A DNA stretch of 64,000 nucleotides from a virus (taxonomy: Duplodnaviria > Caudoviricetes), in IMG/VR virus record IMGVR_UViG_3300032254_000001, positions 1-64,000 of that record. One strand, written 5' to 3'. Shown here in pieces: positions 6,910 through 35,417 of this stretch (its first letter is position 1; every line of letters begins with the position of its first letter). Under the pieces are notes generated by a model. That model ran no database searches. It was given only the letters and a program-made list of their open reading frames with translations, and was not told where the DNA came from. The translations under genes were made by a program, and so were the position numbers.

Positions 6910-7689
6910 TTATACTTCGATTATGAGGCTTGGGTCGTACCCGCTATCTTCGTATATAGTTGTACCGGAATGGTAGTCTTTACGTGGGTAACCTTGTTGG
7001 TTGCTTATAACTTGAGTTCCGTTTATATCAGTAACATGTGAATCGTGTGTATGACCGTAAACCCAGTATTTTGCTTTGCTTGCTGCAATAGCCTCTTCTA
7101 AGCCAGTGTTACAGAAACCGTATGTAATGTCACTGAGTGGAAAACGCCTGTGCTCTAATACAATAGGACAATGGTGAGTAATAATAACATCCGCATCGTA
7201 GTTAATTTGTTCTCGTGTGCGAGTGTTAATATCAATAGAATGATCAGCAGTAAACGGACCGATTGAACCGTCTTCTTTCTCTCTGGTTATAACATAGAAA
7301 TCATTCATGCCGTGCCCGATCTTTTTCTTAACAAACCAGTCCCCACCATTGAGATCAGTCCATAGTGTGCTACCCCAAAAGGTAACGCCTTCTAGTTCTA
7401 AATCAGCAGTTCCTAACGCTTCGTCAAGTAAAAACACACCTTCTTCTTTAGCAAACTTGTCTGCCATGGTAAGTGCTTTATCGTAATCTGAATGATAAAA
7501 TTCGTGGTTACCTGGTACCCAGATAACGTGCTCTGCAGACTTGCGTAAGTTATTAAAGTACTTTGCAAGTGCTGGGAGATTGGATATTAACCCATTATCG
7601 CCGCAGCAAATGACAGTATCACATGCTACGGCAGGGTCTAGTGCGGTGCCCATTTCTATGTGGGTATCTGATTGTATATGTATTTTCAT
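6910..7689 (-). CDS. calcineurin-like metallophosphoesterase
   Basis: SDTHIE, CCGD, PGNHE, THH, GHTH motifs. Confidence 0.9.
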   Translation of the reverse strand: MKIHIQSDTHIEMGTALDPAVACDTVICCGDNGLISNLPALAKYFNNLRKSAEHVIWVPGNHEFYHSDYDKALTMADKFAKEEGVFLLDEALGTADLELEGVTFWGSTLWTDLNGGDWFVKKKIGHGMNDFYVITREKEDGSIGPFTADHSIDINTRTREQINYDADVIITHHCPIVLEHRRFPLSDITYGFCNTGLEEAIAASKAKYWVYGHTHDSHVTDINGTQVISNQQGYPRKDYHSGTTIYEDSGYDPSLIIEV

Positions 7690-8465
7690 TAAGCCTTCTC
7701 TGTGTACATTCTTTGGTCTGCAATGTTGATTAACTCATCAACACTGTCAGCTTCATTGCTTAGTGCAACACCGATACTACACGAGATTTCAACAGTGTGT
7801 TCGCGTATATGTATCGGTTCCTCAACAAGAGCTTTAATCTTCTCGCTTACGATAGCGGAAGTGTTGTGGTTACCGTCAACGACAATAACAAACTCATCGC
7901 CACCGTAGCGACAAAATAAATCAGTCTCACGTATAATGCCTTTGATTCGCTTCGCAACAGTCTTTAACACAAGGTCACCTGTAATGTGACCCATTGTATC
8001 GTTAACTGCTTTGAACTTATTCAAGTCAATAAACAACAGTGAGTAATCTGACTGCATTCGATTTAGTGCAACAAAAAACTGATCTCGGTTTAGTGTATCA
8101 GTTAGCGTATCGCCGGTTGAGTATTCAGTTGGATCGTGGAATATACCGTACGCCATACCTTCACTCAGTCCTTTAATTTTAATGCACATGTTTATATGCC
8201 TGCCGGACTTGGTAACACCAAATACGCGAGCATGTGAGTTCTCGTCCATTACTGCCCAAGAGTCATCGCTGATCTTGCTATGCAGAATGTAATCGTTTAG
8301 ATTAGTATCTAACAATTCTTCTGGGAGGTACTCAAGTAACCCTGCGCCAAATGTGTTTATGTCGACAATATTAAGATCGTCATCGAACATAACCATACCA
8401 ATTGGGCAGGTGTTAATAAGAGTGTACATTGTGTTATTGTCAATATTGGTCATAATCCTTACCAT
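7689..8465 (-). CDS. PAS-GGDEF diguanylate cyclase
   Basis: FIDLNKFKAVNDTMGHITGD, RETD I-site, RYGGDEF; PAS-like N-terminus. Confidence 0.92.
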   Translation of the reverse strand: MVRIMTNIDNNTMYTLINTCPIGMVMFDDDLNIVDINTFGAGLLEYLPEELLDTNLNDYILHSKISDDSWAVMDENSHARVFGVTKSGRHINMCIKIKGLSEGMAYGIFHDPTEYSTGDTLTDTLNRDQFFVALNRMQSDYSLLFIDLNKFKAVNDTMGHITGDLVLKTVAKRIKGIIRETDLFCRYGGDEFVIVVDGNHNTSAIVSEKIKALVEEPIHIREHTVEISCSIGVALSNEADSVDELINIADQRMYTEKA

Positions 8466-9517
8466 TCAATTTTCTTGATTGATCGTAACAGGAACTCTTT
8501 CCAGTTAGGTTCTGCAGCCTTGCTATAGTACTGCATAGCTGCTGGGAATTCTAACGAAGTTAGCACATCCTGGCCTTTGATTGCATACTCTTTGCGCGAC
8601 AAGTCTTTATTTTCTAACCAATAAGCTGTAACTGTGTTAACAAGCAAATTAGCCTTCTGAATAACCTTGTGTTGCAATTCCTGCATTTCCTTTAATACTT
8701 CCGGTTGGTCAGCAATTAAAGTAAACACATCGTCTGCCTCGTCCTTAAGTACCAACTCGATAAAAGCATTTGGTTGGTTTACAAAGTCCTTGGCGCGGTG
8801 GCGTTCTAAGTACCAATTGCACTTTTCTTTCCACCAGTTCCCCAAATCATCAACTACAACATAACCTTCTATGTTGGTAACTGAATCCAGTTCCAGCAAT
8901 GCATCGTGATCAGCAGTGCCGGTAAAATAGTTATCTGGCATTGATTCAATTGCCATGTACTCACCTGTGATGCGGTGTCGCACATTTAAAATAATTAATT
9001 GTGGTTCGTTGTAATACAACACAATACGGTACTTAGGGTCAGGTGACACCAGTTCCATATTTACTGTATAACCATCACGCTCGCACCATTTAACAAAGTC
9101 AAACAATTCAATGTCAGCGTACATTAATTCTGTTGCAAGTTGCGCATATTCAGAATGGATGCTAGTCTTAGACTTCAAAAGAAGCTTACCATCTGCAGAC
9201 GTAAATGAACTAATTAGTGAACCGTCAGCCTTAATCATAACGTGCTGTGGGTTACCGTAATTGATAAAGTCCACTTCACCTTTGTTGAAGAACTTTTGCA
9301 TTGGGCGCGAAGCTATACGAATGAACTCACCTTGCTCGGTTACTTCAAACATAATACCACGTGACTCTAACGCTGATGTTAACAACCATGAATCCTTATC
9401 AGTAAAGTGATAAGAGAAGATGCGATAGTGCTCATTTTCCAGTTGTGTGTCTGCATGGAAAAATGGAGTATCGTCATTGTTGCATAAAAGCATTAAGTTT
9501 TCGTAAAGTTCTTTCAT
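8459..9517 (-). CDS. rnlA: RNA ligase 1 (T4 Rnl1 family)
   Basis: ESRGIMF, SRPMQKFFN, KADGSL (motif I), EGYVV; start moved to MKELYE. Confidence 0.92.
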   Translation of the reverse strand: MKELYENLMLLCNNDDTPFFHADTQLENEHYRIFSYHFTDKDSWLLTSALESRGIMFEVTEQGEFIRIASRPMQKFFNKGEVDFINYGNPQHVMIKADGSLISSFTSADGKLLLKSKTSIHSEYAQLATELMYADIELFDFVKWCERDGYTVNMELVSPDPKYRIVLYYNEPQLIILNVRHRITGEYMAIESMPDNYFTGTADHDALLELDSVTNIEGYVVVDDLGNWWKEKCNWYLERHRAKDFVNQPNAFIELVLKDEADDVFTLIADQPEVLKEMQELQHKVIQKANLLVNTVTAYWLENKDLSRKEYAIKGQDVLTSLEFPAAMQYYSKAAEPNWKEFLLRSIKKIEW

Positions 9518-10038
9518 TCTGCTTCCTCTAAATACCCTTGGTATACAAAAACACTGCGGTAGTCGCCGTTCTGTTGTCGTATACAATTTCTTACTAAATC
9601 TGATTGGTTTGTAAATGTTGCCAGTCCTTTATCTGCTAATTTTTTAGCAGCTTGCACTTCGCGATTTCCAAACACTGAAGTCCTAGAATACTTGCTGTGT
9701 TTCATGCGTTCTAATAACTTCGTTTCAGTTTTATTAAGCTTCATTACTCGTCTGGTTCAACTTGGTTTACAAAAAACATCTTGTATGTTACTACATGGTC
9801 GCCTTTAATGGCATACCCTGCATGTTTATCTTTGCGCTTCCATTTAGTAACGCCCTGCTCTCCCGTTCTTCCTAGAAACTCTTCACATGTATCGATTGCG
9901 GTTTTTCGACTTGATGTCACGCCAACGATATTAGTGCTGTCCTCCTTGTCATGTGCTATATTATCTAAAATTACATAAGCTCTCATTTGACCTCTCCGAG
10001 TTTTAATAGCTCTGAGCTATATTACTTTTCATACTGTA

Positions 10039-10166
10039 ATTATAACAAACAAAGGGTAGAAGGTCAACCTTTTTCGCTGCCTATCTACCCTTTGTAATCA
10101 ATGACTTACAACTATTAGCATTATAGTAAAATCAATGACTTACGTGTCCTGTGTAAGTCATTGATT
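10039..10166 (-). promoter_or_regulatory. sigma70-type promoter with three IHF-like sites
   Basis: TTGACC-17-TATAAT (10039-10067); AATCAATGACTTA at 10096, 10130 and inverted at 10154. Confidence 0.75.
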
Positions 10167-10175
10167 TACAAGCTA

Positions 10176-11165
10176 TTAGTCGTCCCATTCCCATCCTGGA
10201 GGACCACTGTGACCGTGGTTGTCATCGCCATAGCCGTGTCCTGGACGGTCATCGTCGCCATCGTCGTGATCGCCTGGGCCGCCACAGTCATAACCGCATG
10301 GTGGTGGACCTGGTGGGAACGGATTAGTTGGACCTACTGGACCTTGTGGACCTACTGGACCTTGTGGACCTACTGGACCTTGTGGACCCATTGGACCTAC
10401 TGGACCTTGTGGACCCATTGGACCTGCTGGACCTTGTGGGCCAACTAAGCTATCGAGGAAGTCCTGCTCTGTGCCTTCGTTACCTTGGTCAACCCAGATA
10501 TCGTAAGCTGAAGCACCGTCTTGTCCGTCTGCACCATCAGCGCCATCTTGGCCGTCTGTAGCTTCGTTCGCTTCATCGTTAGTACGATTGTCATCTAAGT
10601 CTTTAAGTGCAAGACCAACAGTCAGGAAGTTTTCACCATGTTCTGGATTAAACGTACCGTAACGGTGTACAGCAATTTCCAAGTCAACGTCTTCATCGCC
10701 ATAGCCAACAGCTACACGGTTGAATACCTGGAAGTTACCAGTGTTACGCCAGTTAGTTCCATCTTCGTCTTGACCTTTAAAGTCTTTGTTTTCGCCCCAA
10801 GTGTAAGCTACACCAGGTGTCCAAGATGCATGTACGCTATCTTTATCGCCTGCTATACCTTCGTCTTCAGTGCTTATAACATAGCCAACACCAACAGCCA
10901 TCGCGTCGCGATCACAGTTTGGAGCACCACCATCGTCGTGCCACCATTTAGCTACGTGAGCCTCAACATCATTACGGCGGTAACGAATTGCGCCCATAAT
11001 CATTCGACCCTGGTTACGATTTTTGCAGAACAATGCTTTGTCGCTTGCATCAGATCGTCCACCACTTGAATCACCGAACCCAATACCGATCTCAAACATA
11101 ATTGATTGATCAGCTAATGCCGGGATTGGCAATAAAAGCATGAGTGTGAGTAATAATTTCTTCAT
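10176..11165 (-). CDS. exported beta-barrel-like (PagL-like) protein with collagen-like tail
   Basis: signal peptide, alternating beta strands, then GQDGADG and (GPQGPV)n repeats, C-terminal [18 protein letters not shown]. Confidence 0.6.
10329..10442 (+). repeat. 18-bp tandem repeat encoding collagen Gly-Pro-X
   Basis: TGGACC(T/C)A(C/T)TGGACCTTG repeated about 6 times with no spacers. Confidence 0.9.
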
Positions 11166-11204
11166 TTTGTTTTCTCCTTCATTTGATTTAAAAATTTTAT
11201 CAAT

Positions 11205-11735
11205 TTACCAGGTTATGTCTTCAAATTTCTTGTTGACTTTATCGTAAGTTGTAAACTTCCCATTTTTAATGTCCTGGTAGTTTACAGGTTTACCCCTGGT
11301 CATTTCAACACTGACGTTAACATACAATTCGTGCGCAACTCCTGTTGAATGTGTGTGCCCATGTATTACAGGCCTATGGTACAATTCACTTTCGTGAATT
11401 GGAAAGTGGCTAAGCCAGTGCCGTTTATATTTGATAGGCCCGATAATATCATCAAATATTTCTAAGTATTCAGTTATATGACGTTCGTCATGGTTACCAA
11501 GTAACAACTTCTTGCGCCCGGGTAATTTACCTAGTACGCTTAAATCGTATCCTAGATCGCCTAGGATGAAAATAACATCATTTTTCTTAACGGTGTCATT
11601 CCAATAATCATAAATCTTTTGATCGTGTTCGTCTATATTTTCTACGCCCATACACTGCGCACGAAAGCGGTCATGGAACTCAATGACTCGTCTGTGTCCT
11701 AAGTGTAAATCGCTGTTAAAGTATACTTGACTCAT
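11205..11735 (-). CDS. phage metallophosphoesterase
   Basis: SDLHLGH, LGDL, LGNHD, SHFP, HGHTH. Confidence 0.9.
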   Translation of the reverse strand: MSQVYFNSDLHLGHRRVIEFHDRFRAQCMGVENIDEHDQKIYDYWNDTVKKNDVIFILGDLGYDLSVLGKLPGRKKLLLGNHDERHITEYLEIFDDIIGPIKYKRHWLSHFPIHESELYHRPVIHGHTHSTGVAHELYVNVSVEMTRGKPVNYQDIKNGKFTTYDKVNKKFEDITW

Positions 11736-12010
11736 GTTTTTGTTTTTACTCTTTTTGTGTTTGCTTTATTAGCTCTTTGTCTTATTTGGTTTAAAATATT
11801 AGACGCACTTTCTTCTTTAGCAGGTTCAGCTGCTGGTTTAACCATTTTATAAATTAACTGGTACCTTTCCCAAGCTTCTTGCAATGCTGGATGTTTTTCA
11901 CGTAACAACTCATCCTCGGACTTAGGAGGGAGTTCGGCCCCGCTCTCTGCTTTCCTTTTGCGTATCTCATTGAGCAAGTTTTGTGCATTGCTTGTACCGC
12001 TGATCATTTG

Positions 12011-12286
12011 TTAGTCCGCTTTTTTACCTGGTGAAGACTGAATGGCAGTAATTGAATCAACTCTAAACGAACGGAAACCTTTTGCATCCATATCCCAAAC
12101 GGGCATAACTTCTTCGTTAATTTTCTTTGCATTGGTTCCAGGTTCTTTCTCAGGAACTGCTGGAAGCAGGTCTTCACGTAATGTACATTTCATCACACGG
12201 GTGTCACCATTCTTTTTGGTAAACGTAACTGTGAGGACATCTACGTGAAGTAAGTCGTTTAATGTTTCGCGATCTATATCAATCAT
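12011..12286 (-). CDS. WYL_2/Sm-like SH3-fold protein of T4-like phages
   Basis: VTFTKKNGDTRVMKCTL and VWDMDAKGFRSFR patterns. Confidence 0.7.
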   Translation of the reverse strand: MIDIDRETLNDLLHVDVLTVTFTKKNGDTRVMKCTLREDLLPAVPEKEPGTNAKKINEEVMPVWDMDAKGFRSFRVDSITAIQSSPGKKAD

Positions 12287-12880
12287 TTATTATATTTCCT
12301 AATTTGTAAAAGCATTTTAACATGCGGTATTTAAAAGGTCAACCTTAATTTACACATAAATGTCAATGAAATTGCCCTTTCGCTCAGTGATGTTATTAGC
12401 ACACTCGGTAATCTTTTCAACGTGCTTAACTGCGACTGGCGTTTCGATTTTGACACTTGTGACAGTTCGGTGTTGATTGTCGTGCTGGATATGAGTATAG
12501 TTTTCGATGTAGTTCATTAGAATGTCTCCAAGCTAATGTATTCGATTTTATCAACTGACAGTTCACAGCGGAAGGTATTAACTCTGCCATCAAACCCATC
12601 GTAGATGCGTGTCATGTCAAGTAACGCTGCTGTCATGATTCTGTCGCGCCATTCGAACTGGCTAATAGCGCCTGACTGATTAACAAACACATGCTCGACG
12701 CCTTTTGCAAATGCAGGACCACAGCGGTGGGTACCGGTTACTTCATATACTTCACCGTACGATGTTTTGATAGTAATGGTTTCTGTTACTCTGGGTTGAA
12801 CGTCTGGTGCAGCTAAAAAGATAATTGTAGAAAATACAATAAGTGCAATAACACTCCAAGTTACTGTAGAAAGTCTCATA

Positions 12881-13183
12881 TTAAATTACCTTGTTAGCCA
12901 TAATAGAGAATGAAAGATATTTTTCAACATCTTCTTTGAAGTACGGGAAAATAGTAAACAGTTGGAACGAGTCAACTTCGTCGTAAGTTTTCTTCTTGGT
13001 GCGCATTACTCTTTCAACGCTTGTCCATGAATCGTGCTTTTTAAAACGTATGGACTTACCACGAGCACCCCAGCCAGCATAGTAAGTATCACCTGCTTTG
13101 AATGCAGTCCACACCTTGTCAGATGTGACACCGTTTTTAGTTTGTTTACACCAACCAATAAATTCAAAGTCTATGTCACTCAT
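12881..13183 (-). CDS. WGR-domain-like protein
   Basis: SDKVW...YYAGWGARG; start moved to MSDIDFEF. Confidence 0.5.
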   Translation of the reverse strand: MSDIDFEFIGWCKQTKNGVTSDKVWTAFKAGDTYYAGWGARGKSIRFKKHDSWTSVERVMRTKKKTYDEVDSFQLFTIFPYFKEDVEKYLSFSIMANKVI

Positions 13184-13993: not shown

Positions 13994-14063
13994 ATTATAC
14001 GGTGATCTGGGGTAAAGGTCAACCTTTTATTGCATTATTTGTGGTATATAAATCAATGACTTA
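13994..14063 (-). promoter_or_regulatory. sigma70-type promoter plus IHF-like site
   Basis: TTGACC-17-TATAAT-TAGTACATAG (13994-14022); AATCAATGACTTA at 14051-14063. Confidence 0.75.
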
Positions 14064-14555: not shown

Positions 14556-14557
14556 GG

Positions 14558-15043
14558 TTATTTCCTTTTGTTGGGATTCTTCTTATTACTCATTATAGAC
14601 GAGTTAGTGTAGTTTGCAACCTTTTTCGCAACCCATTTGCCGAATTTCTGCATCCGTTCATCTTGCATTAATTTTTCAACAGTGTTGTAATCACGTGCAA
14701 GTTCTTTGTCCGTAAAGGTTGCATGTATGAAATCGTGACACACTCTGTGGATCCGTACTGTCTCCTTGCCCTTCTTACATTTAGGTATAAGGTGATGTTC
14801 CGACATTGTGTTGTCGTAAGGGCGGTAGCATATCGGACATAGGTCTTCAAAGCTATCGCTAAAATCTTTAAGGAATTGGTGTATGTTTTCTTCGGATTCG
14901 ATTGTGTGCTTTAAATCGTCGATAGCATTTTGCTTGTGAAAGTATTCGCCACTTTCGACTACGTCTCCAGAAGGAGTGGTGACATTAAAGCGCCACCACC
15001 CATCTTCATCTTCGTATACTCCTGATACTTCAAACTGCAACAT
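14558..15043 (-). CDS. HNH-fold protein with DUF1508/YegP-like N-terminus
   Basis: CPIC..EHHLIPK..HRVCHDFIH; N-terminal DEDGWWRFNVTTPSGDVVESGEYF. Confidence 0.6.
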   Translation of the reverse strand: MLQFEVSGVYEDEDGWWRFNVTTPSGDVVESGEYFHKQNAIDDLKHTIESEENIHQFLKDFSDSFEDLCPICYRPYDNTMSEHHLIPKCKKGKETVRIHRVCHDFIHATFTDKELARDYNTVEKLMQDERMQKFGKWVAKKVANYTNSSIMSNKKNPNKRK

Positions 15044-16493
15044 TAGCTCTTACTTCGTTAAAAGTAATTTCGTTGTATAAGTCACCTTTGTAGTACACTA
15101 GGTTCATAATATCTTCCAAGTTATCGTCTAGAGGTCCTTGGTCCAACCGTGCTGTAAACAATTCACCAGTTAGAATATCACGTGCAAGTGATAACACACC
15201 TTCCTTAGACTTCTTGCCAGGATCTGTAACAGGATCCTTTGCAATGCCAACCCATTGATCGTCTACTAAAATAGCACACGCCTTTTGAGCAAACTTCAAA
15301 GTATCGCGGTTAACTTTTTGCAGCAATGCACCACCGCTACCAAATATAACAGTGTCAGCAGCGTAGCCTAACTCTTCGGTAACCATATCAAGTACTTCGC
15401 TAATGATAGCGCGGTCGATTCCGTCCCCTTGAATTATGCCTACATTGTTTATCTGCTTGTAACCTTCTGGAGTGGTAGTAGTACCAAACGCTTCAGCTTG
15501 TAGCTTTAACAGCAATGGAATGTTTACCATCATGTCGCCACTGTCCGGACGGAATACAATCTTTGCTTTACTAGCAATGATCTCATCTTTAAGAACGGTA
15601 CAAAGCAATCTAGCTTCACGCTCCATGTCGTAACCATCAATTACAATTGATACAACAGTGCCTTCTACTGCTTGACTTAACTGCTGACGTAAGTAACGCA
15701 ATGCATCTTCTGTACCGCCACCGAACGAACATTGTATGCTGTGTTCAGTTGCGTAAACGCTGAAGCCTGACATTGCTTCTTTATAAAAGAAGTTTGCAGC
15801 TAGTACGCCTTCCACAGTGTCCGATCCTAAAAAGTTAACAAGGTGAGCAGCACCGCCAATTTCAGCAGTCTCAGCACTCGATACGCCACGTCCACCAAAG
15901 TCGTGCAATGCGAATGGCAGTAAGCCTTTGTCCGCACCAGTCTTATCGTAGTACGCTTCGATCTCATTCTTAACAATGTAGTCCATTGTTGCAATAGTTG
16001 TGGGATACCAGATAGCACGTTGGATGAGAGTTTCAAAACCCGCTGACATCCAGAACAGATCTTTGTCTAATACAGTAACGGAATAGATAGGCTGGCTACC
16101 ATTCATAACTGTACCTTCTGGAACTGCTCGGATTATAAGTGGAAGCTTACCGTTGTATTCGTTAACAACTTTCTCCCACGCTTCACGTGCAAACAACTTG
16201 CGACCAAAGTGAGCAACACTGAACTCTTCAGCTGCATCCACATCCGCCATTGTGATTGTTTGTGTAAGGTATCGCTTTAATAGCATCTGCATACCAAATG
16301 GTACAACAGTATCTTCAGGAGCAACACGGGTCTCACCGTATGATGTCATGCCTGCAATGCTAATGTCTGTTGGGTATGCGAAAGGGTGACTAAACTTATA
16401 GCTGTCAATTCTGCATATAAGACTAATGACAAATGTCTCGTCTTGTGTGTATGCGACATCAGTCGCCTTGGGTGTAAATATATCAGTATTCAT
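15030..16493 (-). CDS. nadV: nicotinamide phosphoribosyltransferase (NAMPT)
   Basis: DSYKFSH, LHDFGGRG, ATEHS, RPDSGD, QGDG, FGSGGALLQKVNRDT. Confidence 0.93.
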   Translation of the reverse strand: MNTDIFTPKATDVAYTQDETFVISLICRIDSYKFSHPFAYPTDISIAGMTSYGETRVAPEDTVVPFGMQMLLKRYLTQTITMADVDAAEEFSVAHFGRKLFAREAWEKVVNEYNGKLPLIIRAVPEGTVMNGSQPIYSVTVLDKDLFWMSAGFETLIQRAIWYPTTIATMDYIVKNEIEAYYDKTGADKGLLPFALHDFGGRGVSSAETAEIGGAAHLVNFLGSDTVEGVLAANFFYKEAMSGFSVYATEHSIQCSFGGGTEDALRYLRQQLSQAVEGTVVSIVIDGYDMEREARLLCTVLKDEIIASKAKIVFRPDSGDMMVNIPLLLKLQAEAFGTTTTPEGYKQINNVGIIQGDGIDRAIISEVLDMVTEELGYAADTVIFGSGGALLQKVNRDTLKFAQKACAILVDDQWVGIAKDPVTDPGKKSKEGVLSLARDILTGELFTARLDQGPLDDNLEDIMNLVYYKGDLYNEITFNEVRANVAV

Positions 16494-16508
16494 AATTAAA
16501 CTCCTTAA

Positions 16509-17417
16509 TTATTTTGAAAAACTTAACATTCTTTGGATTGGCTTTCTAGCTAGCTCAATTTCATCGTCTGTTAAATAGTCTATTGCGGTACCACCAGTAC
16601 CGTTAATTGCTGCCCGAACAGCCTCTATTGTATTCATCTTCATGAAAGGACAAATATTACAAGAACATCCATTATACCCTAAAGCAGGTCTAATGTCAAG
16701 CTCTTTTCGCGCTTTTCGCATGTCATTTAGTAGGCCTTCCTCAGTTGCTACCCAAATTGTGCCAACCTTATGGGGGAAATCCTTCACCCATTGTAGCATT
16801 TTATTGGTAGAACCAACGAAGTCCGCCATTTCTAGTAAATCCAGTTGAGCTTCTGGGTGGGCAAGGACGTACTTGCCTCCATCCGTCCACCCACGCATAT
16901 CCTTCTTAAGCTGGTCTGCATTCATCATATCGTGTACATCGCATACAGAAGTATAAACTCCCATATCGTAACCAAATTCCTTATTGATGTATGATCCCAT
17001 GTTAGCATCAGGGCTGAATATAACGTCATTACCGCTATCAATTTCTGCCTCTACAATTGCGTTAACATTTGCAGATGTAACAATAATGTCAGCCATGCCT
17101 TTCATTGCAACCGAGCTGTTAATGTACATGATGTGAGTTGCGTCGTGATTAGCTGTGCGCCATTTACGTAACTCGTCTAAGTCAGTCTGTTCAACTAATG
17201 AACACGTTGCCTTAAAATCAGGTATAATAACTTCAGTGTCCGGAAGCATAACCTTTGCAGTTTCTGCCATAAATCTAACACCGGCAAAAACTATACGCTT
17301 AGGATTAACTCGTTGCGCTTCTTCTATTAAGCCTAAGCTATCACCAACAAAGTCAGCCATGGCTTTAACTTCTTCAGGAGCGTACCAGTGTGCTAAAATT
17401 AAAGTATCTTTATTCAT
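16509..17417 (-). CDS. nadA: quinolinate synthase A
   Basis: LAHWY, GDS, GVRFMAETAK, CSL, YINS, CDVH, AHPE, GST, CPFMK (three Fe-S cysteines). Confidence 0.93.
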   Translation of the reverse strand: MNKDTLILAHWYAPEEVKAMADFVGDSLGLIEEAQRVNPKRIVFAGVRFMAETAKVMLPDTEVIIPDFKATCSLVEQTDLDELRKWRTANHDATHIMYINSSVAMKGMADIIVTSANVNAIVEAEIDSGNDVIFSPDANMGSYINKEFGYDMGVYTSVCDVHDMMNADQLKKDMRGWTDGGKYVLAHPEAQLDLLEMADFVGSTNKMLQWVKDFPHKVGTIWVATEEGLLNDMRKARKELDIRPALGYNGCSCNICPFMKMNTIEAVRAAINGTGGTAIDYLTDDEIELARKPIQRMLSFSK

Positions 17418-18372
17418 CGCCCACCTCCTGGATTATTTCAAATAGCCTTAGGCCTTTTGCTTCGTCAGTTGCGTGATCAATGCCATCAATTGCATTTTGT
17501 AAACTAGTCTTAATGGACTTTAGTTTCTTTGTGTCCATAGTACGTACAAATTCAGCAGCATTGTTGGCTTTTCTAATATCAAACGAAGCACCGCATACAA
17601 TGGAACTTTTGTTAAATGCTGTATCGGTTGCATTGCGGAATCCTAGTATCATTGCAATCTCTGACATTGATACGTCAACTAAGAACCCACCGTGTGTATC
17701 TGCTATGATCTTCATTTTGCACCTCCTACGATACCGTGACGTTGCAATACAGCAATCTCGTCTTCGTTAAGTTTATCAAGTGTTTGCTTAAGAAAAATGT
17801 CTTCCTCTTCTTCTTTAATTTCCTGGAAGACTTGCTGCATACGAACGACACGCATTGTACCAAAGTGTACTTTCTCTTTACCGTAGTACGATGTCATTTG
17901 TTTTGCAGAACGTAGCAATGCAAATGCCTTGCCTATTTCCTTAAACACGTTGCGGCTTTCAACCCGACTACTAAAGAAAGGATAGCCACCGCTGTGATCG
18001 TCAATACCAATGAAGCCGATGCCACCATCGGAGGTATCATAAATTACTGTATAACCTTTATCGATTTTGTTATTCATTTTGGCCTCCGTACTTTGTAGTC
18101 TATGATTTTAACTTTACGCTTTTTAGTAACATCTTCTAAACAAGTGTCTAGCTTTATGCCGTAAGCGTCAAGCTTAATGTATGCCTTGTACTGGTTTACA
18201 TAACGTGGAATACCCATGTCGTAGTATTCCTTACTTTCAAGTTTCCAGGTAACTTTGAAATCTTGTACTGACTCATCTGGCATCTGTAGTGTGATGCGAG
18301 ATAGTGCTGCGGTTACGTCAGTCTTATCGATTTCCCAATAAAGGTCTTCCCAGTTGTTAGTTATTTTAAGTC

Positions 18373-18777
18373 TCATCGTTCTGCTCCCATGGTGTCGTAG
18401 CCTGAACGCTCGTAACGTGGAGCTTCATCGCGCTTCTCAACTGCATTGCTTGCGCTTAACTCGTACAATGCATCGGCGCTATAATGTGGACGGTATATAG
18501 GTTGTCCCTTCCACTTAAACTGTTCACGCGCCTCGTGTTCTACTGCGGCGAGTACAGCTTTAAGACCTGTGCTAAGAATCTCTTCGTCGCACATATGAAA
18601 GCTCAACATCCATTTACGGCAGTTCTGCAATTGCATCTCACCATCTGGATTCATGTTGTCTTGTGCTAAGAACTTAACTTGTAAGTACGGCACATCGTTC
18701 GTATAACGTAACAGGATGTTCCAGTCGTTAAATGAAAGTTCGTTTACTAATTTTTCTAATGATTCTTTTGTTTGCAT
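18373..18777 (-). CDS. conserved hypothetical phage protein
   Basis: CRKWMLS..AVEHEAREQF pattern; in operon with NAD genes. Confidence 0.6.
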   Translation of the reverse strand: MQTKESLEKLVNELSFNDWNILLRYTNDVPYLQVKFLAQDNMNPDGEMQLQNCRKWMLSFHMCDEEILSTGLKAVLAAVEHEAREQFKWKGQPIYRPHYSADALYELSASNAVEKRDEAPRYERSGYDTMGAER

Positions 18778-18787
18778 GATAGTCTCC

Positions 18788-19828
18788 CTACGCTCTGCTT
18801 AACATGTTCTTTATGATTGAGTAGTGATCCTCAAACATAACGCCTTGCATTGTTTCAAATTCTGCAAGCGATACCCATTTAATATTTTGGGTTTCTTCGT
18901 TACCTTTTACTTTTGGTAACACGGCTGCGTTATCTAGTTGAAACAGAAATGCGTGTGTAATTGTGCGACCACGTGTTGAACGATTAGGATCATCAAAGTA
19001 GTCCTGGTGTGCGATAGAACCGCGTAGTACCTTTTCGGGTACCTTCAGTCTAGTCTCTTCACGTAGTTCGCGAAGTACAGTATTCTTTAACTTCTCACCT
19101 GGGTCAACAAAGCCGCCGGGCATTGCCCACAAACCTTTACCGGGGTAACCGTTACGCTGTATAAGCAAGATGTGTCCGCTTTGTTCTACTACGGCATCAG
19201 CAGTAACGAAGGTTGGCTCGTATGGTGCTGCTTTCCACGCTTTCTTGTAAGCTTCAACGTAATCCCATTCTTTTTGCAGCCCTTCAAACACATCAGACTT
19301 TAGAAAGTCACGTACTTGAGTACCTGGAACTACCCCATCAACAAACGATAATTGATTAGTAAACATCAGTTGCCTGATCTTAGTTGAATCAATTGTATCG
19401 CCTACTTCTGGATAAGCTGGCATTTCGATATATTCCCATTGGGGGAAATAGTTTAGGTAATAACTGCTGTGGTCTTTGTCGTGTCCGATAACTGCAACAC
19501 GGATACACTTTTCATCACGTAGACGAATATCCTGTACCGTTTTAGTAATCTTCTCACCTACTTGCTGGATCCATTCGTTATCGTTGTAACTGTAATCATT
19601 AAGACCATCAGTATACAAACTGATATCATCAAAGCTTGATTGAATAGCATCAGAGCGTTCGTCGTATGTCCAGGGGTTTCGTATGGTGCGCGGTCCGTTA
19701 GCAGAACCTATTAATACCAACACGTTGTTGGCAATGTTGCTAGCTACACGAACAGTTTCGCGGTGGCCTTTGTGGAATGGTTGAAATCTGCCAATGAAAA
19801 CTACTAAATCATATTTTTTATCATTCAT
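18788..19828 (-). CDS. nadM: bifunctional NMN adenylyltransferase / ADP-ribose pyrophosphatase (NadM-Nudix)
   Basis: GRFQPFHKGH (HxGH) and Nudix box GGFVDPGE....VLRELREET. Confidence 0.95.
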   Translation of the reverse strand: MNDKKYDLVVFIGRFQPFHKGHRETVRVASNIANNVLVLIGSANGPRTIRNPWTYDERSDAIQSSFDDISLYTDGLNDYSYNDNEWIQQVGEKITKTVQDIRLRDEKCIRVAVIGHDKDHSSYYLNYFPQWEYIEMPAYPEVGDTIDSTKIRQLMFTNQLSFVDGVVPGTQVRDFLKSDVFEGLQKEWDYVEAYKKAWKAAPYEPTFVTADAVVEQSGHILLIQRNGYPGKGLWAMPGGFVDPGEKLKNTVLRELREETRLKVPEKVLRGSIAHQDYFDDPNRSTRGRTITHAFLFQLDNAAVLPKVKGNEETQNIKWVSLAEFETMQGVMFEDHYSIIKNMLSRA

Positions 19829-26312: not shown

Positions 26313-26328
26313 AAAATCGTTTGTTAGT

Positions 26329-26470: not shown

Positions 26471-26477
26471 GTCGTGT

Positions 26478-29729: not shown

Positions 29730-29974
29730 ATTATATGATTATACACCCAAAAGGTCAACCTTTTTGTTAATTATTTGCCCTTTAAAAATCAATGACTTAC
29801 AAATTAGTTTAAAATAATACAAAATAGGGCGGTTTTGTGCATTGTTGGGGGTAACTACGCACATCTACAAATTACAAACAAATTATTTTCCACTATTCTT
29901 ATATAAATCAACGACTTAGCTCAAATCTACTCAGTTAATACATTTATAAAAAGTGCTTATAAATCAATGACTTA
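29730..29974 (-). promoter_or_regulatory. AT-rich regulatory region: sigma70 promoter plus three IHF-like sites
   Basis: TTGACC-17-TATAAT (29730-29758); AATCAA(T/C)GACTTA at 29787, 29906, 29962. Confidence 0.7.
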
Positions 29975-29980
29975 CAAAGC

Positions 29981-30568
29981 TTACGGTATATACTTGCGAA
30001 TATTGCTGTTTGCATAGGCACTTGGCAGAACTACATCAAAAGTATCAAATACTTTGCTATCTGGAGAACCCACGTAATTAAAGCCCAAAATGTACAGATC
30101 ATCAAAGTGGTTAATATCCAGCATATATCCGCTAGAACCTGGACCCATGCTATCCGCTTTGTATGTCTTCATTTTCTCAGGATGCTTATCAATCATGTAC
30201 TCCATCCAGTGACGTATTTCTGCTGTACGGAATAAGATTGCTTTGACGCATTTAAGCCCTTTGTCCATGCCGGGTTTTACAACTAAGTACAGATCACTTT
30301 CGGTTGTAAATATCCCAGATAAGTCCCCATTGCCTTTTAAGATTTCTATATAGATGCCTGTACTGCCAGTCACCTTTATTTCAATTTTGGAGCGATTAAG
30401 TATTTTGTCGTAACGTGGGTCGAAGCCTGTAGTTCCACCGTTTGATTGGAGTTCGTGGTAATAGCTTACTGCATTAATGATAGCATCTTCGGCGCGATCA
30501 TTGTACGAAAAGTCCGTACCGCCTTTGGTTTGGTTTAGTTTGCTAATTTCAATTTTCATTGTTTCCAA
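29981..30568 (-). CDS. hypothetical protein, possible PD-(D/E)xK nuclease fold
   Basis: YDKIL..IEIK..IYIE pattern; weak. Confidence 0.4.
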   Translation of the reverse strand: METMKIEISKLNQTKGGTDFSYNDRAEDAIINAVSYYHELQSNGGTTGFDPRYDKILNRSKIEIKVTGSTGIYIEILKGNGDLSGIFTTESDLYLVVKPGMDKGLKCVKAILFRTAEIRHWMEYMIDKHPEKMKTYKADSMGPGSSGYMLDINHFDDLYILGFNYVGSPDSKVFDTFDVVLPSAYANSNIRKYIP

Positions 30569-31103
30569 TCGCCATTTAGTATTCTAGGTTGAAGAGGTCT
30601 ATTGAATAGTCTTGCTGTTATGATTTCTTTTTCCATGTACGCGGCGAGGTACCTGCGGGACTCAACAAGCTTGTCGTGGAACCGAAATCTGTATTTTTTG
30701 ATATCGCTTAACACTATGAGTTGCCATTCGTCGTCGGGTAGTTCGTGCCACGGGTGTCCTGGAAACTCTGGATATCTCTGTTGATATTCAATCATAAGAG
30801 TAGTATATGATATTCTTACAGCAAGGTCAACTAGATTAGATAAATATTGATATGGCACAATTAAATGGTTACACAAACTCAGATGGCGTATTCGTAGATA
30901 AGGTTCCGCGTCCAGTGGATAGATATTCACCAAACGGAATTGCTCGAATCACACCTCCATTAAGTCGAGGTTATGCTAAACTAGCGTACAAAGCTTGGGT
31001 AGAAGGTGGAATGGCTAGTCCTTGGGACGGCACATACACAGATCATGAAGGCGCCCAGGATTTACAATATTTTGACGAACCATAACACAAGGTAAATAAT
31101 ATT

Positions 31104-31505
31104 ATGAAAGATCACAAAGAAACTTAGGTACACCCTTCACTATCACTCTGGAAATGGGGCAATGATCGCTTCAGCCATCTAGGGTATAAAATATTTACAA
31201 TAGCCTACATCAAAGGCATTTTCGATTGCTACCTTTTTTATTACAAGAAAGGTTCATACATTCCAAAGCACAAAGACCCGCACAAACACGGTAAACAGTA
31301 CAGGTTTAATATTGTACTGCGTAAGCCTACCTCTGGCGGTGAATTTGTGTGTAACGGAAAACATTTTAATTTATGGAATCGGTTTATCTTATTTAGAGCA
31401 GACCGTGACTATCATTACATTAATAAAATTACCCAGGGCACAAGGCTTATGCTTAGTTTTGGGTTTTATTTCAAACACAAAGGAGAACATCATGTCAAAT
31501 TTTGA
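31104..31505 (+). CDS. 2OG-Fe(II) oxygenase-like gene with in-frame TAG at codon 8 (missed by ORF track)
   Basis: frame encodes YIPKHKDP (HxD), GGEF, YHY, R.MLSFG; ATG at 31104 preceded by AAGGT. Confidence 0.6.
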
Positions 31506-32019
31506 AACAAAAGAACAATACCTGAACTTTATTTCCGCCTGGAAATCATCAACAAACGCTGAAGAATGCAAATCCAAAAGGGTTGTGTGCAACCACACGC
31601 AATACAGATGGAATAACAGTTTCAGCGCCGAAGAGAAAGCACGGTTCGAAGAACTAGGCTACATTAACATAAGCAATTACTCGTACGAAGTGCCAGATGG
31701 CGGCCATTATAAAACTAAAGGCTGGCTCAATGCATCACATTACATATTCCGTAACATGATGCTAGGCAAAGATCCAATGCGTGGCTTTAGCCCTAAATCA
31801 GAACGTAAGCTAGAGTACGGTGAAAACCCGTGGTCAGCATTTGAAGCTGGTGAATGGGAATTGCGAATGGTTATTAAGGATGCAAAGCTTTATGTAGACG
31901 AGCTTGGTAAAGGTAAAACACCAGCATACGGCAGAAGGGCAAAAGCATTCCTTGAACCATTCCAGGGCAAGATTGCGATAGCGGACTTACTAAAGATCGA
32001 AGAGCCTGCTCATCGCTAA
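31492..32019 (+). CDS. hypothetical protein
   Basis: start MSNFETK after GGAG RBS. Confidence 0.65.
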   Translation: MSNFETKEQYLNFISAWKSSTNAEECKSKRVVCNHTQYRWNNSFSAEEKARFEELGYINISNYSYEVPDGGHYKTKGWLNASHYIFRNMMLGKDPMRGFSPKSERKLEYGENPWSAFEAGEWELRMVIKDAKLYVDELGKGKTPAYGRRAKAFLEPFQGKIAIADLLKIEEPAHR

Positions 32020-32291
32020 GGATGATGCTGTTCTTTTGGAACCTTTGGATACACTTTGTATCTTAGGATAACTAAGATAATAACAATGTTGAATGCGTAG
32101 TTAGCGACTAATGGATACAGAATGGTTGGTTGGGCGAGTACATATATTAATACGAGTACTTCGCCCCACAGCCACATTTGGAGGAATGGCATATTGACGC
32201 CATGCGTGTGTCCTTCTTTGCAACTCTGCCAGGCCATTGGCACACCGCAAAATGTTAACAAGAAGCTACCTACCCATCCAATAATTTCCAT
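32016..32291 (-). CDS. PQ-loop/SemiSWEET-like small membrane protein
   Basis: IGWVGSFLL..VPMAW, three TM helices. Confidence 0.6.
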   Translation of the reverse strand: MEIIGWVGSFLLTFCGVPMAWQSCKEGHTHGVNMPFLQMWLWGEVLVLIYVLAQPTILYPLVANYAFNIVIILVILRYKVYPKVPKEQHHP

Positions 32292-32318
32292 CGTGTTTCC
32301 TCACTACTAAATATCACT

Positions 32319-32618
32319 ATGAATGATATAATCTCAAATTGGATACTTGAAACATTAAGTGTCAAACATCCTGCGTTTAATAACATGCCACCTTGTCCGT
32401 ACGCAAAGAAAGCATTGTTAGACGGTAACGTCAAAGTCCTTGAAGTAACAGACTTTGAAGAACAATTCGATCAACATAAAGATGTTGAGAAAGGACACGT
32501 CGTTGTATTTCTATTTAACCCAACAGACATCACCCCGGAAGAATTAACTGCCCTAGCTGGGACGTATGCTATTTGCCAGGCCAGTCATGGGGTAAGGTAC
32601 AAGAATTTACTAAAATGA
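32319..32618 (+). pseudogene. N-terminal fragment of a DUF1415-like phage protein
   Basis: NNMPPCPYAKKA motif, then frame runs out of phase into the amidinotransferase fragment. Confidence 0.45.
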
Positions 32619-32965
32619 AGCGCAAGGTTGGCGGCAAGTGGTGGGTTCCTGGGCAAGAGGATAATGACGAGTTTACTGACTTTGTTGAAACATGGTTACA
32701 GGATTGGGTTGGATTCTGCGAGGAAACAGTATTTGATGTGAATAGCTTTGTGCTAGACGAACACCATGTATGTGTATCGCAAATGAATCCACAAGTTAAT
32801 GAGTTTCTTGCAAAGCACGATATGACACCAATTCATATTCCATGGCGCCACAGGTACTTCTGGGATGGTGGGTTGCATTGCATTACACTTGATTTGGAAA
32901 GAGAAGGCACACAGAAGGACTTATTCATTAACAGAACAGGTCCAGTCACATGTATGGGATATTAA
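32556..32965 (+). pseudogene. C-terminal fragment of an amidinotransferase
   Basis: VFDVN, WRHRYFWDGGLHCITLDL (catalytic Cys region) with no N-terminal half and no convincing start. Confidence 0.7.
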
Positions 32966-32996
32966 TAATAAATACTGTTACATTAAGGAACCCATC

Positions 32997-33467
32997 ATGA
33001 GATTCACAGAGATAGCAAAGAAGAAGCCAGTTAAATCAAAACCTAAAACGAAAGCTGAAATAGAAGAGCTACGTTATTCCATCCAAGCTGGCACAGTTAC
33101 ACAGCGCCAGGCATTTAGTATAAAGAAATTACTTGTTGGTATTATTGGAAAATATGCTACAGGAGATGATTGGGCTGTTAAGCAGAACTTTTTAGATGCG
33201 GGATTATATTACGAAGGTGAAGACCTGAATGAGGCTAATCGTATTGGAAAGGAAATAGTTGGTGCGCTATATGGATTCTTCCAAGATGGAGCGCGTCGAA
33301 GTGTTACTAAGCTGAAGCGTGAAGAAGATAATCAAACAATGTCATTTACTGCTATACCTATGGATGACCAAGGTAATAAAGCACCTCCTCAGATATCATT
33401 TACATGGTATAAGAATGCACAAACAGGCGGCCCTGTTATTGCTATCAACATCAACGCTCCGCGTTAA
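32997..33467 (+). CDS. hypothetical protein
   Basis: MRFTEI start after AGGA RBS. Confidence 0.6.
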   Translation: MRFTEIAKKKPVKSKPKTKAEIEELRYSIQAGTVTQRQAFSIKKLLVGIIGKYATGDDWAVKQNFLDAGLYYEGEDLNEANRIGKEIVGALYGFFQDGARRSVTKLKREEDNQTMSFTAIPMDDQGNKAPPQISFTWYKNAQTGGPVIAININAPR

Positions 33468-33468
33468 T

Positions 33469-33542
33469 TGGATCTCCGGGTAGGACTCGAACCTACATTC
33501 CGGCAGTCAAAGTGCCGTGTCCTGCCATTAGACGACCAGAGA
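33469..33542 (-). tRNA. tRNA-Gln(TTG)
   Basis: CGGCA-CTTTGAC-TGCCG, CCA end. Confidence 0.9.
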
Positions 33543-33548
33543 ATAAAT

Positions 33549-33622
33549 TGGATACCCCTACAGGACTTGAACCTATAACTACTGAGTCAGAGTCAGTCGT
33601 TTTACCATTAAACTAAAGGGCA
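33549..33622 (-). tRNA. tRNA-Gln(CTG)
   Basis: ACTGA-CTCTGAC-TCAGT, CCA end. Confidence 0.9.
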
Positions 33623-33632
33623 TTAAATTAAA

Positions 33633-33750
33633 TTGTTTAGCAGGATTCGAACCTACGCTCTCCACTGCGGAATTTACGTTACCATATTCAAGGAGGAATC
33701 GAACCTCAACTACCCTCGGGCGGATGTACTAACCGCTATACTATAAACAA
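33633..33750 (-). ncRNA. tRNA-like RNA with a second T-arm inside the anticodon loop
   Basis: acceptor TTGTTTA/TAAACAA, D arm, stem TCCGC/GTGGA enclosing about 55 nt that include GAGG-TTCGATT-CCTC; no CCA. Confidence 0.6.
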
Positions 33751-33939
33751 AGACTTACGAGAAACGCTTAACAGCTTGGTCTCGCGCTTCACTATCATTT
33801 CTTGCAACAACCCAAAGACTTCGTTCAACCCATTGCTTCTTAACAATAGCTTTATAAAAGATCTCATAAATGCGTTCAGGCCCTGGACCTCCAGGGGACA
33901 ACCTAACGTCAGTTATTTCGAACTTTCTCATCTTCATGA

Positions 33940-34458
33940 TTATTCCTTTGCGTTATTTTGTGCCCAATCTAAATCAAGCACTTCGCCGTATTCTTCCACC
34001 ATCTCAATAGGACCTTCGTAGTCTGGAAGTCCATCTATATCCATATCGTTTATGTCATATGAGAAAGTGATGTGTGTTTTGTATTCTGGAAAATCGAATG
34101 TAGCATTATGCTCATCCATTAAGTAATCATGTCTTTCGTTTAGCTCAGGACAATCAAATTCTAAAACTAAACATTGCGGGCAATGTCCGTCATCGTCTGC
34201 TTGTCCTTCCCAAACATGCCATTCACCTGGCGTACCATGTAGAGCAGGATTAAGTTCACCCTGCGGCTTGTAATTTGGACATCTTCGTCTGCTATACAAT
34301 AAAGTAGAATGTAACTTATCTACTGGTGTAGCATTCGGGATATTGTTATTCTTAATGTATTCAACAATAGCATTCTTTGTTTCTTCACTAAAATGCACAC
34401 CTGCGTATGTACCTTTGTGATGTGTCTTTCTTATAAATTCATTTGACTTCATTTGCAT
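33940..34458 (-). CDS. acb1: anti-CBASS 2H phosphoesterase Acb1 (T4 gp57B-like)
   Basis: GTYAGVHFSEET, KLHSTLLYSR, ATFDFPEYKTHITFSY, EVLDLDW parallel T4 57B; two HxT motifs. Confidence 0.88.
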   Translation of the reverse strand: MQMKSNEFIRKTHHKGTYAGVHFSEETKNAIVEYIKNNNIPNATPVDKLHSTLLYSRRRCPNYKPQGELNPALHGTPGEWHVWEGQADDDGHCPQCLVLEFDCPELNERHDYLMDEHNATFDFPEYKTHITFSYDINDMDIDGLPDYEGPIEMVEEYGEVLDLDWAQNNAKE

Positions 34459-35417
34459 AAACGGTAGGAATTTTTTCCTGCCTCCTTAACTTCGTACATT
34501 GCAATATCAGCACCTTCGATTAACTCATTGGTGTTGATAATACATTTCTCTCCGCTACTAAAGCAGATGCCTACGCTTGCTGTTTGTATTATTTCATTGC
34601 CATCATGTACACATGGCTTATTAAACAGATGCACTAAGTCAGCACATTTTTTAAGTAGGTCTTCTTTTTTATTATCTAGGCACGATACAACAAATTCATC
34701 ACCGCCGTAACGGGCAACAACATCTGTTTTTCTTGAAAACACAGATCTAATCTTTTCAGCAAAGTCTACAATAATTGCGTCACCTGCTACGTGTCCGTAT
34801 GTGTTATTGACTACGCTAAAGTCGTCCATGTCTAATAGGATTAACCCAACTGACGTTTTTGTTCTGTTTGCATTGTGTATTGTTCCTTCCATTTGTTCTA
34901 AGAAGAAACGCCTGTTGTACAAATCAGTGCCTGGATCTCTAAATGCTAATGCTTTTAATTCTTCTTCGTAACGTTTACGCTCTGTAATATCAGTTATCAT
35001 TGCAATGATAACTGATTCGTTACCATTTACAAACTGTAGCCTGACTTCGATCTCGTAAGTTGAGCCGTCTTTTCTTAGATGCGTAGTCTGGAATCTTAGT
35101 ATGTCTAACTCAAAAGTACGTAACGGCTGAATCATTTCAATGAACTCTGCTCGCGTAAATTCTGGCTTAACATCAAGTGGAGTCATACCTTTCATTTCAT
35201 CTAACGTGTACCCAAGGTTTTTAAGTGCGCCTTGACTAACTTCTGAGAATAGTAAGGTTTCACAATCAAATACATAAATCTCCTCAAATGAGTGTTCGAG
35301 GATCCTTTTGTATCTTGCCCTTTTATCATTAACTTCGTCTGTGATATCACATGTGGTTCCATCACGTGAACAATCGATTTTAGGCAACGGGGGGAATTTG
35401 TTTTTCTTATCGTCCAT
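34449..35417 (-). CDS. PAS-GGDEF diguanylate cyclase
   Basis: PAS/PAC (HLRKDGSTYEIEVRL), DPGTDLYNRR, LLDMDDFSVVNNTYGHVAGD, RKTD I-site, RYGGDEF. Confidence 0.93.
   Translation of the reverse strand: MDDKKNKFPPLPKIDCSRDGTTCDITDEVNDKRARYKRILEHSFEEIYVFDCETLLFSEVSQGALKNLGYTLDEMKGMTPLDVKPEFTRAEFIEMIQPLRTFELDILRFQTTHLRKDGSTYEIEVRLQFVNGNESVIIAMITDITERKRYEEELKALAFRDPGTDLYNRRFFLEQMEGTIHNANRTKTSVGLILLDMDDFSVVNNTYGHVAGDAIIVDFAEKIRSVFSRKTDVVARYGGDEFVVSCLDNKKEDLLKKCADLVHLFNKPCVHDGNEIIQTASVGICFSSGEKCIINTNELIEGADIAMYEVKEAGKNSYRLCK

Follow-up and report, generated by a model that had tools for sequence, protein, structure and literature searches.

Sensor cyclases that make cyclic di-GMP (c-di-GMP) are known from solved structures such as the LOV enzyme 8C05, PA0861/RbdA, TM1788 (4URS), PleD and WspR. 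GGDEF-type cyclases also occur in phage genomes, and in 2017 Iyer et al. reportedly described GGDEF modules in virion-delivered polyvalent proteins. A 'DGC' (diguanylate cyclase) auxiliary gene was found in a Mu-like virus from the Cariaco Basin (PMC7785012), and gp350 of Bacillus phage G is called a 'probable diguanylate cyclase' (PMC12484599); in a review of jumbo phages, GGDEF appears in the reference list alone (PMC7824862). Another route is taken by Pseudomonas phage peptides that interact with YfiN and act on host c-di-GMP signalling (PMC8085984). In the literature that we searched, phage alteration of c-di-GMP has been reported solely via such peptides, which bind the host cyclase, and no functional study of phage GGDEF genes was found. 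Here we describe two genes for PAS-GGDEF proteins, GGDEF-A and GGDEF-B, on the minus strand of a 64-kb stretch of DNA (hereafter the window), which is the first 64 kb of the 344,483-bp IMG/VR record IMGVR_UViG_3300032254_000001.

The two proteins have the domain order and fold of the solved sensor cyclases, with the same GGDEF hairpin, metal- and guanine-binding residues and RxxD spacing. They differ from them in being only 23-32% identical and in coming from a T4-like jumbo phage of virulent type, in the replacement of K332 and D336 (PleD numbering, used throughout) in the family of GGDEF-B, in the lack of the strand with R446 in the family of GGDEF-A, and in having no PAS cofactor signature. 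With the Mu-like DGC, gp350 of phage G and the GGDEF modules of polyvalent proteins they share the carriage of a GGDEF-type cyclase by a phage genome; here, however, there are two separate, small, predicted cytoplasmic, PAS-gated enzymes with I-sites, together with an EAL enzyme, in place of a domain of virion cargo or a moron of a prophage, and they have conserved phosphoesterase partners. Assignment to the virion-delivered polyvalent class, in which the GGDEF domain forms part of a large virion or ejection protein and mostly has no I-site, was rejected, GGDEF-A and GGDEF-B being standalone open reading frames (ORFs; 258 and 322 residues) with I-sites, in non-structural operons. As with the YfiN-interacting peptides (PMC8085984), the phage is predicted to raise host c-di-GMP during infection; those peptides bind a host cyclase, whereas this phage brings its own enzymes.

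Two phage families of PAS-GGDEF proteins

7689..8465, minus strand: GGDEF-A, 258 residues, with a PAS domain (~13-111) and a GGDEF domain (119-257)
34449..35417, minus strand: GGDEF-B, 322 residues, with a Cys-containing N-terminal tail, a PAS domain (~35-146), a linker helix and a GGDEF domain (158-320)

A first-pass annotation had read these genes as two PAS-GGDEF diguanylate cyclases with intact active sites. Their domain content was borne out: each ORF encodes a PAS and a GGDEF domain, with profile scores above the cut-offs and corresponding AlphaFold2 folds. For GGDEF-A (254 residues from the start at 8453 chosen by the gene caller), the GGDEF domain matched Pfam PF00990 at 1.1e-34 and 120 bits (cut-off 23.8) and TIGR00254 at 120.6 bits, and the PAS domain scored 25.5 bits with PAS (cut-off 22.6) and 23.6 with PAS_8 (cut-off 21.8). 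The corresponding values for GGDEF-B were 5e-38 and 130.8 bits with PF00990 (cut-off 23.8), 131.8 bits with TIGR00254, 28.1 bits with PAS_9 (cut-off 27) and 67.2 bits with the NCBIfam model sensory_box (cut-off 22.9). In the models, built from family alignments, a PAS domain (a five-stranded sheet flanked by helices) precedes the GGDEF domain in both proteins (mean predicted local distance difference test score ~86.5), and the isolated GGDEF domain of the GGDEF-B model superimposes on solved active cyclases at 1.6-2.3 Å. Among solved sequences, those nearest to the two proteins belong to active cyclases (T. maritima TM1788, DgcR, PleD, DosC and WspR), and the top Foldseek matches of the GGDEF-B model were a LOV-activated cyclase, the PAS-GGDEF protein PA0861 and DosP. 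No recognisable cofactor signature was seen in the PAS domains of GGDEF-A and GGDEF-B. A LOV-type PAS was considered for GGDEF-B, whose model resembles a LOV cyclase most closely in structure; it was rejected because the sequence has no flavin-binding Cys motif. The tail of GGDEF-B (residues 1-30) is poorly modelled and holds C16 and C23; most family members have Cys in the tail, which may form a redox- or metal-sensing cap.

In GGDEF-A, residues D143, K148, N151, D160 and K253 take the positions of D327, K332, N335, D344 and K442. In GGDEF-B, D327, N335, D344 and K442 correspond to D196, N204, D213 and K311, and the GKN lysine is also present. The I-sites (R175-E-T-D178 in GGDEF-A, R229-K-T-D232 in GGDEF-B) lie five residues ahead of the GGDEF motif, and each is invariant in its family. 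Across the 16 members of family A and 32 of family B, the invariant set comprises D327, N335, D344, R366, GGDEF, K442 and the RxxD I-site; D327, N335 and D344 are described as essential (PMC7288161). The position of D344 stays Asp rather than Ser/Thr (15/16 family-A and 32/33 family-B ids in a motif scan), so the two proteins are not of the cGAMP-making Hypr type, and this candidate was rejected. The essential catalytic, guanine-specificity and feedback residues of both cyclases are evidently under purifying selection. With the essential residues and the PAS domain kept in this way, signal-dependent synthesis of c-di-GMP would be the most likely activity.

The active sites are nevertheless not intact in every respect. 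The metal-binding Asp, the guanine-binding Asn and Asp, GGDEF and RxxD are all in place, but the N-D-x-x-G-H motif that the first-pass annotation had ascribed to both proteins reads N-N-T-Y-G-H in GGDEF-B, with Asn205 at the D336 position and Ser201 at that of K332. All 32 family-B members have S/G/N at K332 and N at D336, whereas in 176 comparison GGDEF proteins (other matches from the homologue searches) the usual residues are found in ~97-98% (K332 in 172, D336 in 170). In family A, all 16 members stop 1-12 residues past the K442 lysine and are without the last strand and the equivalent of PleD R446. The accessory catalytic set (K332, K442 and R446) is thus incomplete in both proteins, GGDEF-A missing the R446 position and GGDEF-B having Ser in place of K332. 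K332 has been described as the transition-state stabiliser (PMC12943098) and R446 touches the GTP phosphates (PMC7288161). Judged from these residues, cyclase activity of GGDEF-A and GGDEF-B is likely but not assured.

Each protein belongs to a family of its own. Family B has ~32 homologues from metagenomes that share 46-66% identity (E < 1e-75), with cellular cyclases next at ~32-35%; family A has 15 homologues besides GGDEF-A at 36-59%, followed by a similar drop to cellular enzymes. When 123 GGDEF domains were placed in a maximum-likelihood tree, those of family A formed one clade (17 rows, support 97), as did those of family B (35 rows, support 95). The two are not sisters, and both hold copies from other jumbo-phage records. 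The families occur together on one 117-kb contig and on the 250-kb record G001 (L- and G-numbers are labels for related phage contigs and records). On the alignments and the tree, families A and B are two old, monophyletic phage lineages found solely in metagenomes. Against 50,697 GenBank phage records, a near-identity DNA search with both regions gave no match, and tblastn gave no close homologue, all matches being below 60% identity and the best among those listed at 41%. A scan of viral contigs with the single GGDEF-B sequence found no match, and the family-B alignment run against metagenome contigs returned, among the matches listed, cellular GGDEF proteins alone, at <=39% identity.

Could the contig be chimeric or contaminated by a prophage, so that the genes are host DNA, or could they be decaying passengers? 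Many GGDEF matches in 'viral' collections do fall on contigs that are short or host-like, such as the GGDEF-EAL fusions seen in fragments from IMG/VR. Phage records also include mislabelled bacterial assemblies, on which many of our tblastn GGDEF matches in the GenBank phage set fell. The present record, however, is complete (CheckV estimate 100%) and carries direct terminal repeats, and its GC content is even (0.38-0.46). The cyclase genes overlap those for Rnl1, a metallophosphoesterase and Acb1 (see below), the same genes are syntenic on several other jumbo-phage contigs, the phage clades are monophyletic and deeply diverged, and the functional residues are invariant. We give this explanation next to no credence, and it is already refuted by the present evidence: the GGDEF genes are phage-borne. 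The record also has a Gp23-type capsid gene, and this gene is closest in DNA (66-69%) to those of the jumbo phages PA5oct, Rak2-like phages and phages of XaC1 type. Microbial-mat metagenomes are the source of the phage DNA, which is found in two DNA runs, one of them probably the origin of the record; no RNA run is among the sequencing runs listed. The record is a complete, uncultured, T4-like jumbo phage from a microbial mat.

Phosphoesterase genes coupled to the cyclase genes

The most informative feature of the two loci is the translational coupling of each cyclase gene to a gene for a phosphoesterase, in an arrangement that is conserved in relatives. GGDEF-A lies in a cluster of RNA-repair genes:

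8459..9586, minus strand: T4-type RNA ligase 1 (Rnl1; RNA_lig_T4_1 2.2e-19, T4_Rnl1_C 5e-8)
6910..7689, minus strand: metallophosphoesterase, 259 residues (Metallophos 3.9e-10, Metallophos_2 6.6e-11)
4496..5422, minus strand: polynucleotide kinase/phosphatase (PNKP), at the far end of the cluster (HAD_PNKP 2.3e-51, AAA_33 1.3e-17)

The 3' end of the Rnl1 gene overlaps the longest GGDEF-A ORF by 7 nt, and the ATG of the metallophosphoesterase gene shares one base with the GGDEF-A stop codon (TAATG). The order in the window is Rnl1, GGDEF-A, metallophosphoesterase, a fibre-like ORF, a 125-residue ORF and PNKP. In L160 it is Rnl1, GGDEF-A, Metallophos and PNKP, and in L162 Rnl1, GGDEF-A and Metallophos. 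L161 and L007 have a family-2 glycosyltransferase (GT2), an unknown gene, an 81-residue ORF, GGDEF-A and Metallophos, with PNKP (and Rnl2) further on. The GGDEF-A-metallophosphoesterase pair is present in 5/5 close relatives, always within the Rnl1/PNKP cluster, and is missing beside a more distant homologue (37%). T4 Rnl1 and PNKP form a tRNA-repair pair that counters the PrrC anticodon nuclease. Both enzymes are found here with the expected domains; the difference from T4 is that a GGDEF-metallophosphoesterase pair stands between the two repair genes in this phage clade, and our literature search found no paper describing such a pair between Rnl1 and PNKP. The metallophosphoesterase motifs (DxH, GD, GNHE, HH and GHTH) are invariant. 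As to its substrate, sequence and profile searches of the PDB gave marginal matches, the NCBIfam models YfcE/CpdA stayed below threshold, and an Atlas search led to generic phage metallophosphoesterase clusters. A complex prediction for GGDEF-A and the metallophosphoesterase received a negligible score, which carries no weight either way. The GT2 gene of L007 (2458-3789) and L161 (3001-4332), three genes upstream of GGDEF-A, encodes a 443-residue processive enzyme with chitin- or cellulose-synthase-like Pfam matches; cellular enzymes of this kind are often activated by c-di-GMP.

GGDEF-B has a different partner:

33940..34452, minus strand: Acb1-type 2H phosphoesterase (PF23474; 7.5e-36, 123.4 bits, cut-off 27)
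35810..36286, minus strand: RNaseH_like (PF04308), the upstream neighbour of GGDEF-B, with a tRNA-Thr gene between them

The Acb1 start common to the homologues (MKSNEFI) overlaps the stop codon of GGDEF-B as ATGA (34452-34449). Both HxT motifs are kept, and LHSTLLYS and THITFSY are conserved across six homologues. Acb1 adjoins GGDEF-B in 6/10 family-B lineages. It lies downstream, with stop and start overlapping or abutting, in the window, L013/L014, L164, L166 and L167, and in L010 the order is reversed, Acb1 standing upstream and still adjacent. A search for a cryptic Acb1 beside GGDEF-B in L011, L015, L016 and L165 found none, and G003 and G005 carry their Acb1 gene at a distance from the GGDEF gene. 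Most lineages also keep the RNaseH_like gene upstream of GGDEF-B; it is 71-85% identical in L010, L011, L013 and L015 and was recognised by Pfam match in L165, L166 and L167. Likeness to T4 Acb1 (Hobbs et al. 2022) is drawn from the sequence, that is the PF23474 match and the two HxT motifs; T4 acb1 has no cyclase partner, whereas the gene described here shows translational coupling to one of the GGDEF type. In L167 (4168-5109) a 313-residue Acb1 with a C-terminal extension of ~140 residues immediately follows GGDEF-B. Near GGDEF-B/Acb1 in L013, L014, L165 and L166 there are genes resembling Paired_CXXCH_1 multihaem cytochromes and TctA/DctP transporters, an unusual cargo for a phage.

The presence of a phosphoesterase gene after each cyclase gene, with stop and start overlapping, raises the question of whether the GGDEF domains are mainly nucleotide-binding regulators of these neighbours. 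The PAS domain and GTP or c-di-GMP would then gate Acb1 and the metallophosphoesterase, the latter for RNA-end healing or nucleotide hydrolysis. A precedent exists in Caulobacter PdeA, in which a degenerate, GTP-sensing GGDEF domain activates an EAL domain (PMC7288161). The pairing in 5/5 close relatives inside the Rnl1/PNKP cluster and the absence of one accessory catalytic residue in each family would agree with this reading. However, adjacency alone proves no physical or regulatory link, and the GGDEF, metal, base-binding and feedback residues are invariant, as in working cyclases. We hold it to be very unlikely.

An alternative specific to the second locus is that GGDEF-B and Acb1 are a counter-defence pair, in which Acb1 would destroy adenine-containing immune cyclic oligonucleotides and GGDEF-B would handle c-di-GMP (3',3'-cGG), which Acb1 leaves uncut. 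In one variant, c-di-GMP would be made as a competitor at dinucleotide-sensing effectors or Panoptes-type decoy-guard systems, or to keep these quiet; in another, the I-site would bind host c-di-GMP as a sponge against c-di-GMP-signalling CBASS (cyclic-oligonucleotide-based antiphage signalling systems). The ATGA overlap speaks for such a pair, as do the adjacency in six of ten lineages (kept in L010 despite the reversed order) and the late-type box, described below, that is common to whichever gene stands first. As summarised in PMC10312549, citing Hobbs 2022, T4 Acb1 leaves 3',3'-cGG uncut and Acb2 does not bind it, so by this account both spare the molecule. Over-expressed Acb1 lowered colony formation of cells expressing Panoptes (VnOptSE) (PMC12657218), and the family-specific changes at K332/D336 could mark an altered function of GGDEF-B. 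Five of the six adjacencies, however, show one gene order and may therefore represent a single inherited block, while four lineages have no neighbouring Acb1 and in two records the gene is distant. An invariant active-site core, as found here, is uncommon in a protein that serves purely as a binder, no effector antagonised by c-di-GMP is known, and against signals of c-di-GMP the phage would have a simpler weapon in its EAL enzyme. We thus regard a counter-defence role of this pair as unlikely, and quite unlikely the wider scheme in which, besides, the GGDEF-A-metallophosphoesterase pair would tie c-di-GMP to the repair of RNA damage.

Each cyclase with its phosphoesterase could also be a metabolic pair that drains GTP, as the first-pass annotation had proposed as one option, or yields linear pGpG- or GMP-type products acting on host RNA metabolism or nucleotide pools in the course of infection. 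A hydrolase coupled to each cyclase and the location of one pair within the RNA-repair cluster would suit this idea. Product inhibition at the RxxD sites of both cyclases would limit flux, though, which argues against bulk GTP drain; c-di-GMP is left uncut by T4 Acb1 according to the summary cited above, and the searches described above assigned no substrate to the metallophosphoesterase. This option we find very improbable indeed.

The window further contains genes for NAMPT, NMNAT/Nudix and fibre-like proteins besides Rnl1, PNKP and Acb1, and 38 tRNA genes. An NAD+ cluster at 15030-19828 (minus strand) consists of NAMPT (15030-16493), quinolinate synthase NadA (16509-17417) and a bifunctional NMNAT/Nudix protein (18788-19828), which we take to resemble the NAD-reconstitution pathway NARP2 with a de novo step added. 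Within the tRNA array, two tRNA-like genes (43711-43784 and 45446-45518, minus strand) have anticodons of 2 and 4 bases in irregular anticodon loops (ARAGORN).

Transcription units, the EAL enzyme and a proposed circuit

10039..10067, minus strand: sigma-70-like promoter candidate (TTGACC, 17 nt, TG-TATAAT; extended -10; 11/12 consensus match)
35423..35430, minus strand: TATAAATA box of the T4 late-promoter type, 5 nt ahead of the GGDEF-B ATG
Genome 153,833-154,657, plus strand, outside the window: standalone EAL enzyme (PF00563, 173.8 bits)

The sigma-70-like candidate precedes the run of genes with Rnl1, GGDEF-A and the metallophosphoesterase, and has a twin at 5784-5756 ahead of PNKP, which is followed by a terminator-like hairpin at 4440-4414. 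The TATAAATA octamer is depleted in the genome (13 observed, ~44 expected from base composition). Four copies have an ORF ATG 1-6 nt downstream, at 273009(+), 197689(+), 181013(-) and window position 35430(-), and point to a small group of late-type transcripts with almost no leader. A longer context, GTACGTATAAATA, is common to two TATAAATA copies. L164 has the identical box and spacing ahead of GGDEF-B. In L165 and L166, ATAAATA-like boxes stand 5-6 nt ahead of the first ATG; in L010, in which acb1 is the leading gene, such a box precedes acb1. These elements suggest that GGDEF-A may be expressed with the early genes, and that the GGDEF-B/acb1 unit may give a late-type, nearly leaderless transcript.

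The first-pass annotation had found no EAL or HD-GYP partner. This is correct for the window, but not for the genome, in which the standalone EAL enzyme has the complete set of motifs (EAL, ELTE, DDFGTGYSS, KxD, EGVE and QGY). There was no HD_5 match for an HD-GYP in the genome, and neither PilZ nor a c-di-GMP-II riboswitch was found there; nor was a c-di-GMP-I riboswitch, a result of little weight, the RF01051 control having matched nowhere. Relatives have similar sets, with three GGDEF and two EAL genes in G001, one EAL gene directly upstream of the B-type gene, and one of each kind in G002. In G001 (IMGVR_UViG_3300033143_001962; 171384-172631 and 150956-152627) we noted a third enzyme, a 669-residue GGDEF-EAL fusion, as well as the standalone EAL directly upstream of the B-type GGDEF.

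With moderate confidence, we propose that the phage runs a c-di-GMP circuit, gated by sensors and limited by feedback, which has host receptors as its targets and the EAL enzyme as its off-switch. The two PAS-gated GGDEF enzymes would condense GTP to c-di-GMP once their sensor domains permit dimerisation, the I-sites would limit output through product inhibition, and the EAL enzyme would clear the product. The genome yielded no receptor of the phage's own, so the most likely targets would be host c-di-GMP receptors that control motility, pili, matrix and surface polysaccharide, and possibly RNA turnover, in keeping with a host that lives in a microbial mat. Since the cyclases lie in different transcription units (sigma-70-like for GGDEF-A, TATAAATA late-type for GGDEF-B), the signal would probably go up at two different stages or in two sets of conditions. 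If Acb1 of this phage spares c-di-GMP, as the T4 enzyme does in the summary in PMC10312549, the phage could use c-di-GMP as its signal and still erase the messengers of CBASS. The data show what the genes are, that they are the phage's own, which residues are conserved, and how the operons are built and kept in relatives; the activity, timing and targets of the circuit are what we infer from the genome. The earlier proposal of a signal-dependent manipulation of host c-di-GMP gains from sensor-linked GGDEF domains with conserved essential residues, and is tempered by the accessory residue absent in each family. The downstream effects offered with it, namely receptor shutdown, superinfection exclusion, aggregation or GTP drain, would be guesses.

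Several findings weigh against this proposal. Through the K332/D336 changes of family B and the loss of the R446 strand in family A, either enzyme could be slow, altered or non-catalytic. The promoter calls are consensus matches whose counts are not above those in shuffles, and no phage-side read-out of c-di-GMP (PilZ, HD-GYP or riboswitch) was found in the genome.

c-di-GMP control in giant phages

Three elements of this system are new: two dedicated phage GGDEF families together with an EAL enzyme in T4-like jumbo phages, the conserved phosphoesterase partners in an RNA-repair cluster and with Acb1, and the family-wide deviations at K332/D336 and R446. The last of these are natural variants for probing the GGDEF mechanism. 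The coupling of cyclases to phosphoesterases, including an anti-CBASS nuclease that, by the account available for T4, spares c-di-GMP, could link housekeeping second-messenger signalling to the arms race over phage defence. Two cyclase lineages and a phosphodiesterase have been kept over deep divergence in this giant-phage clade, which argues that control of the switch between sessile and motile states, or of another c-di-GMP output, pays in lytic infection in biofilm-like habitats.

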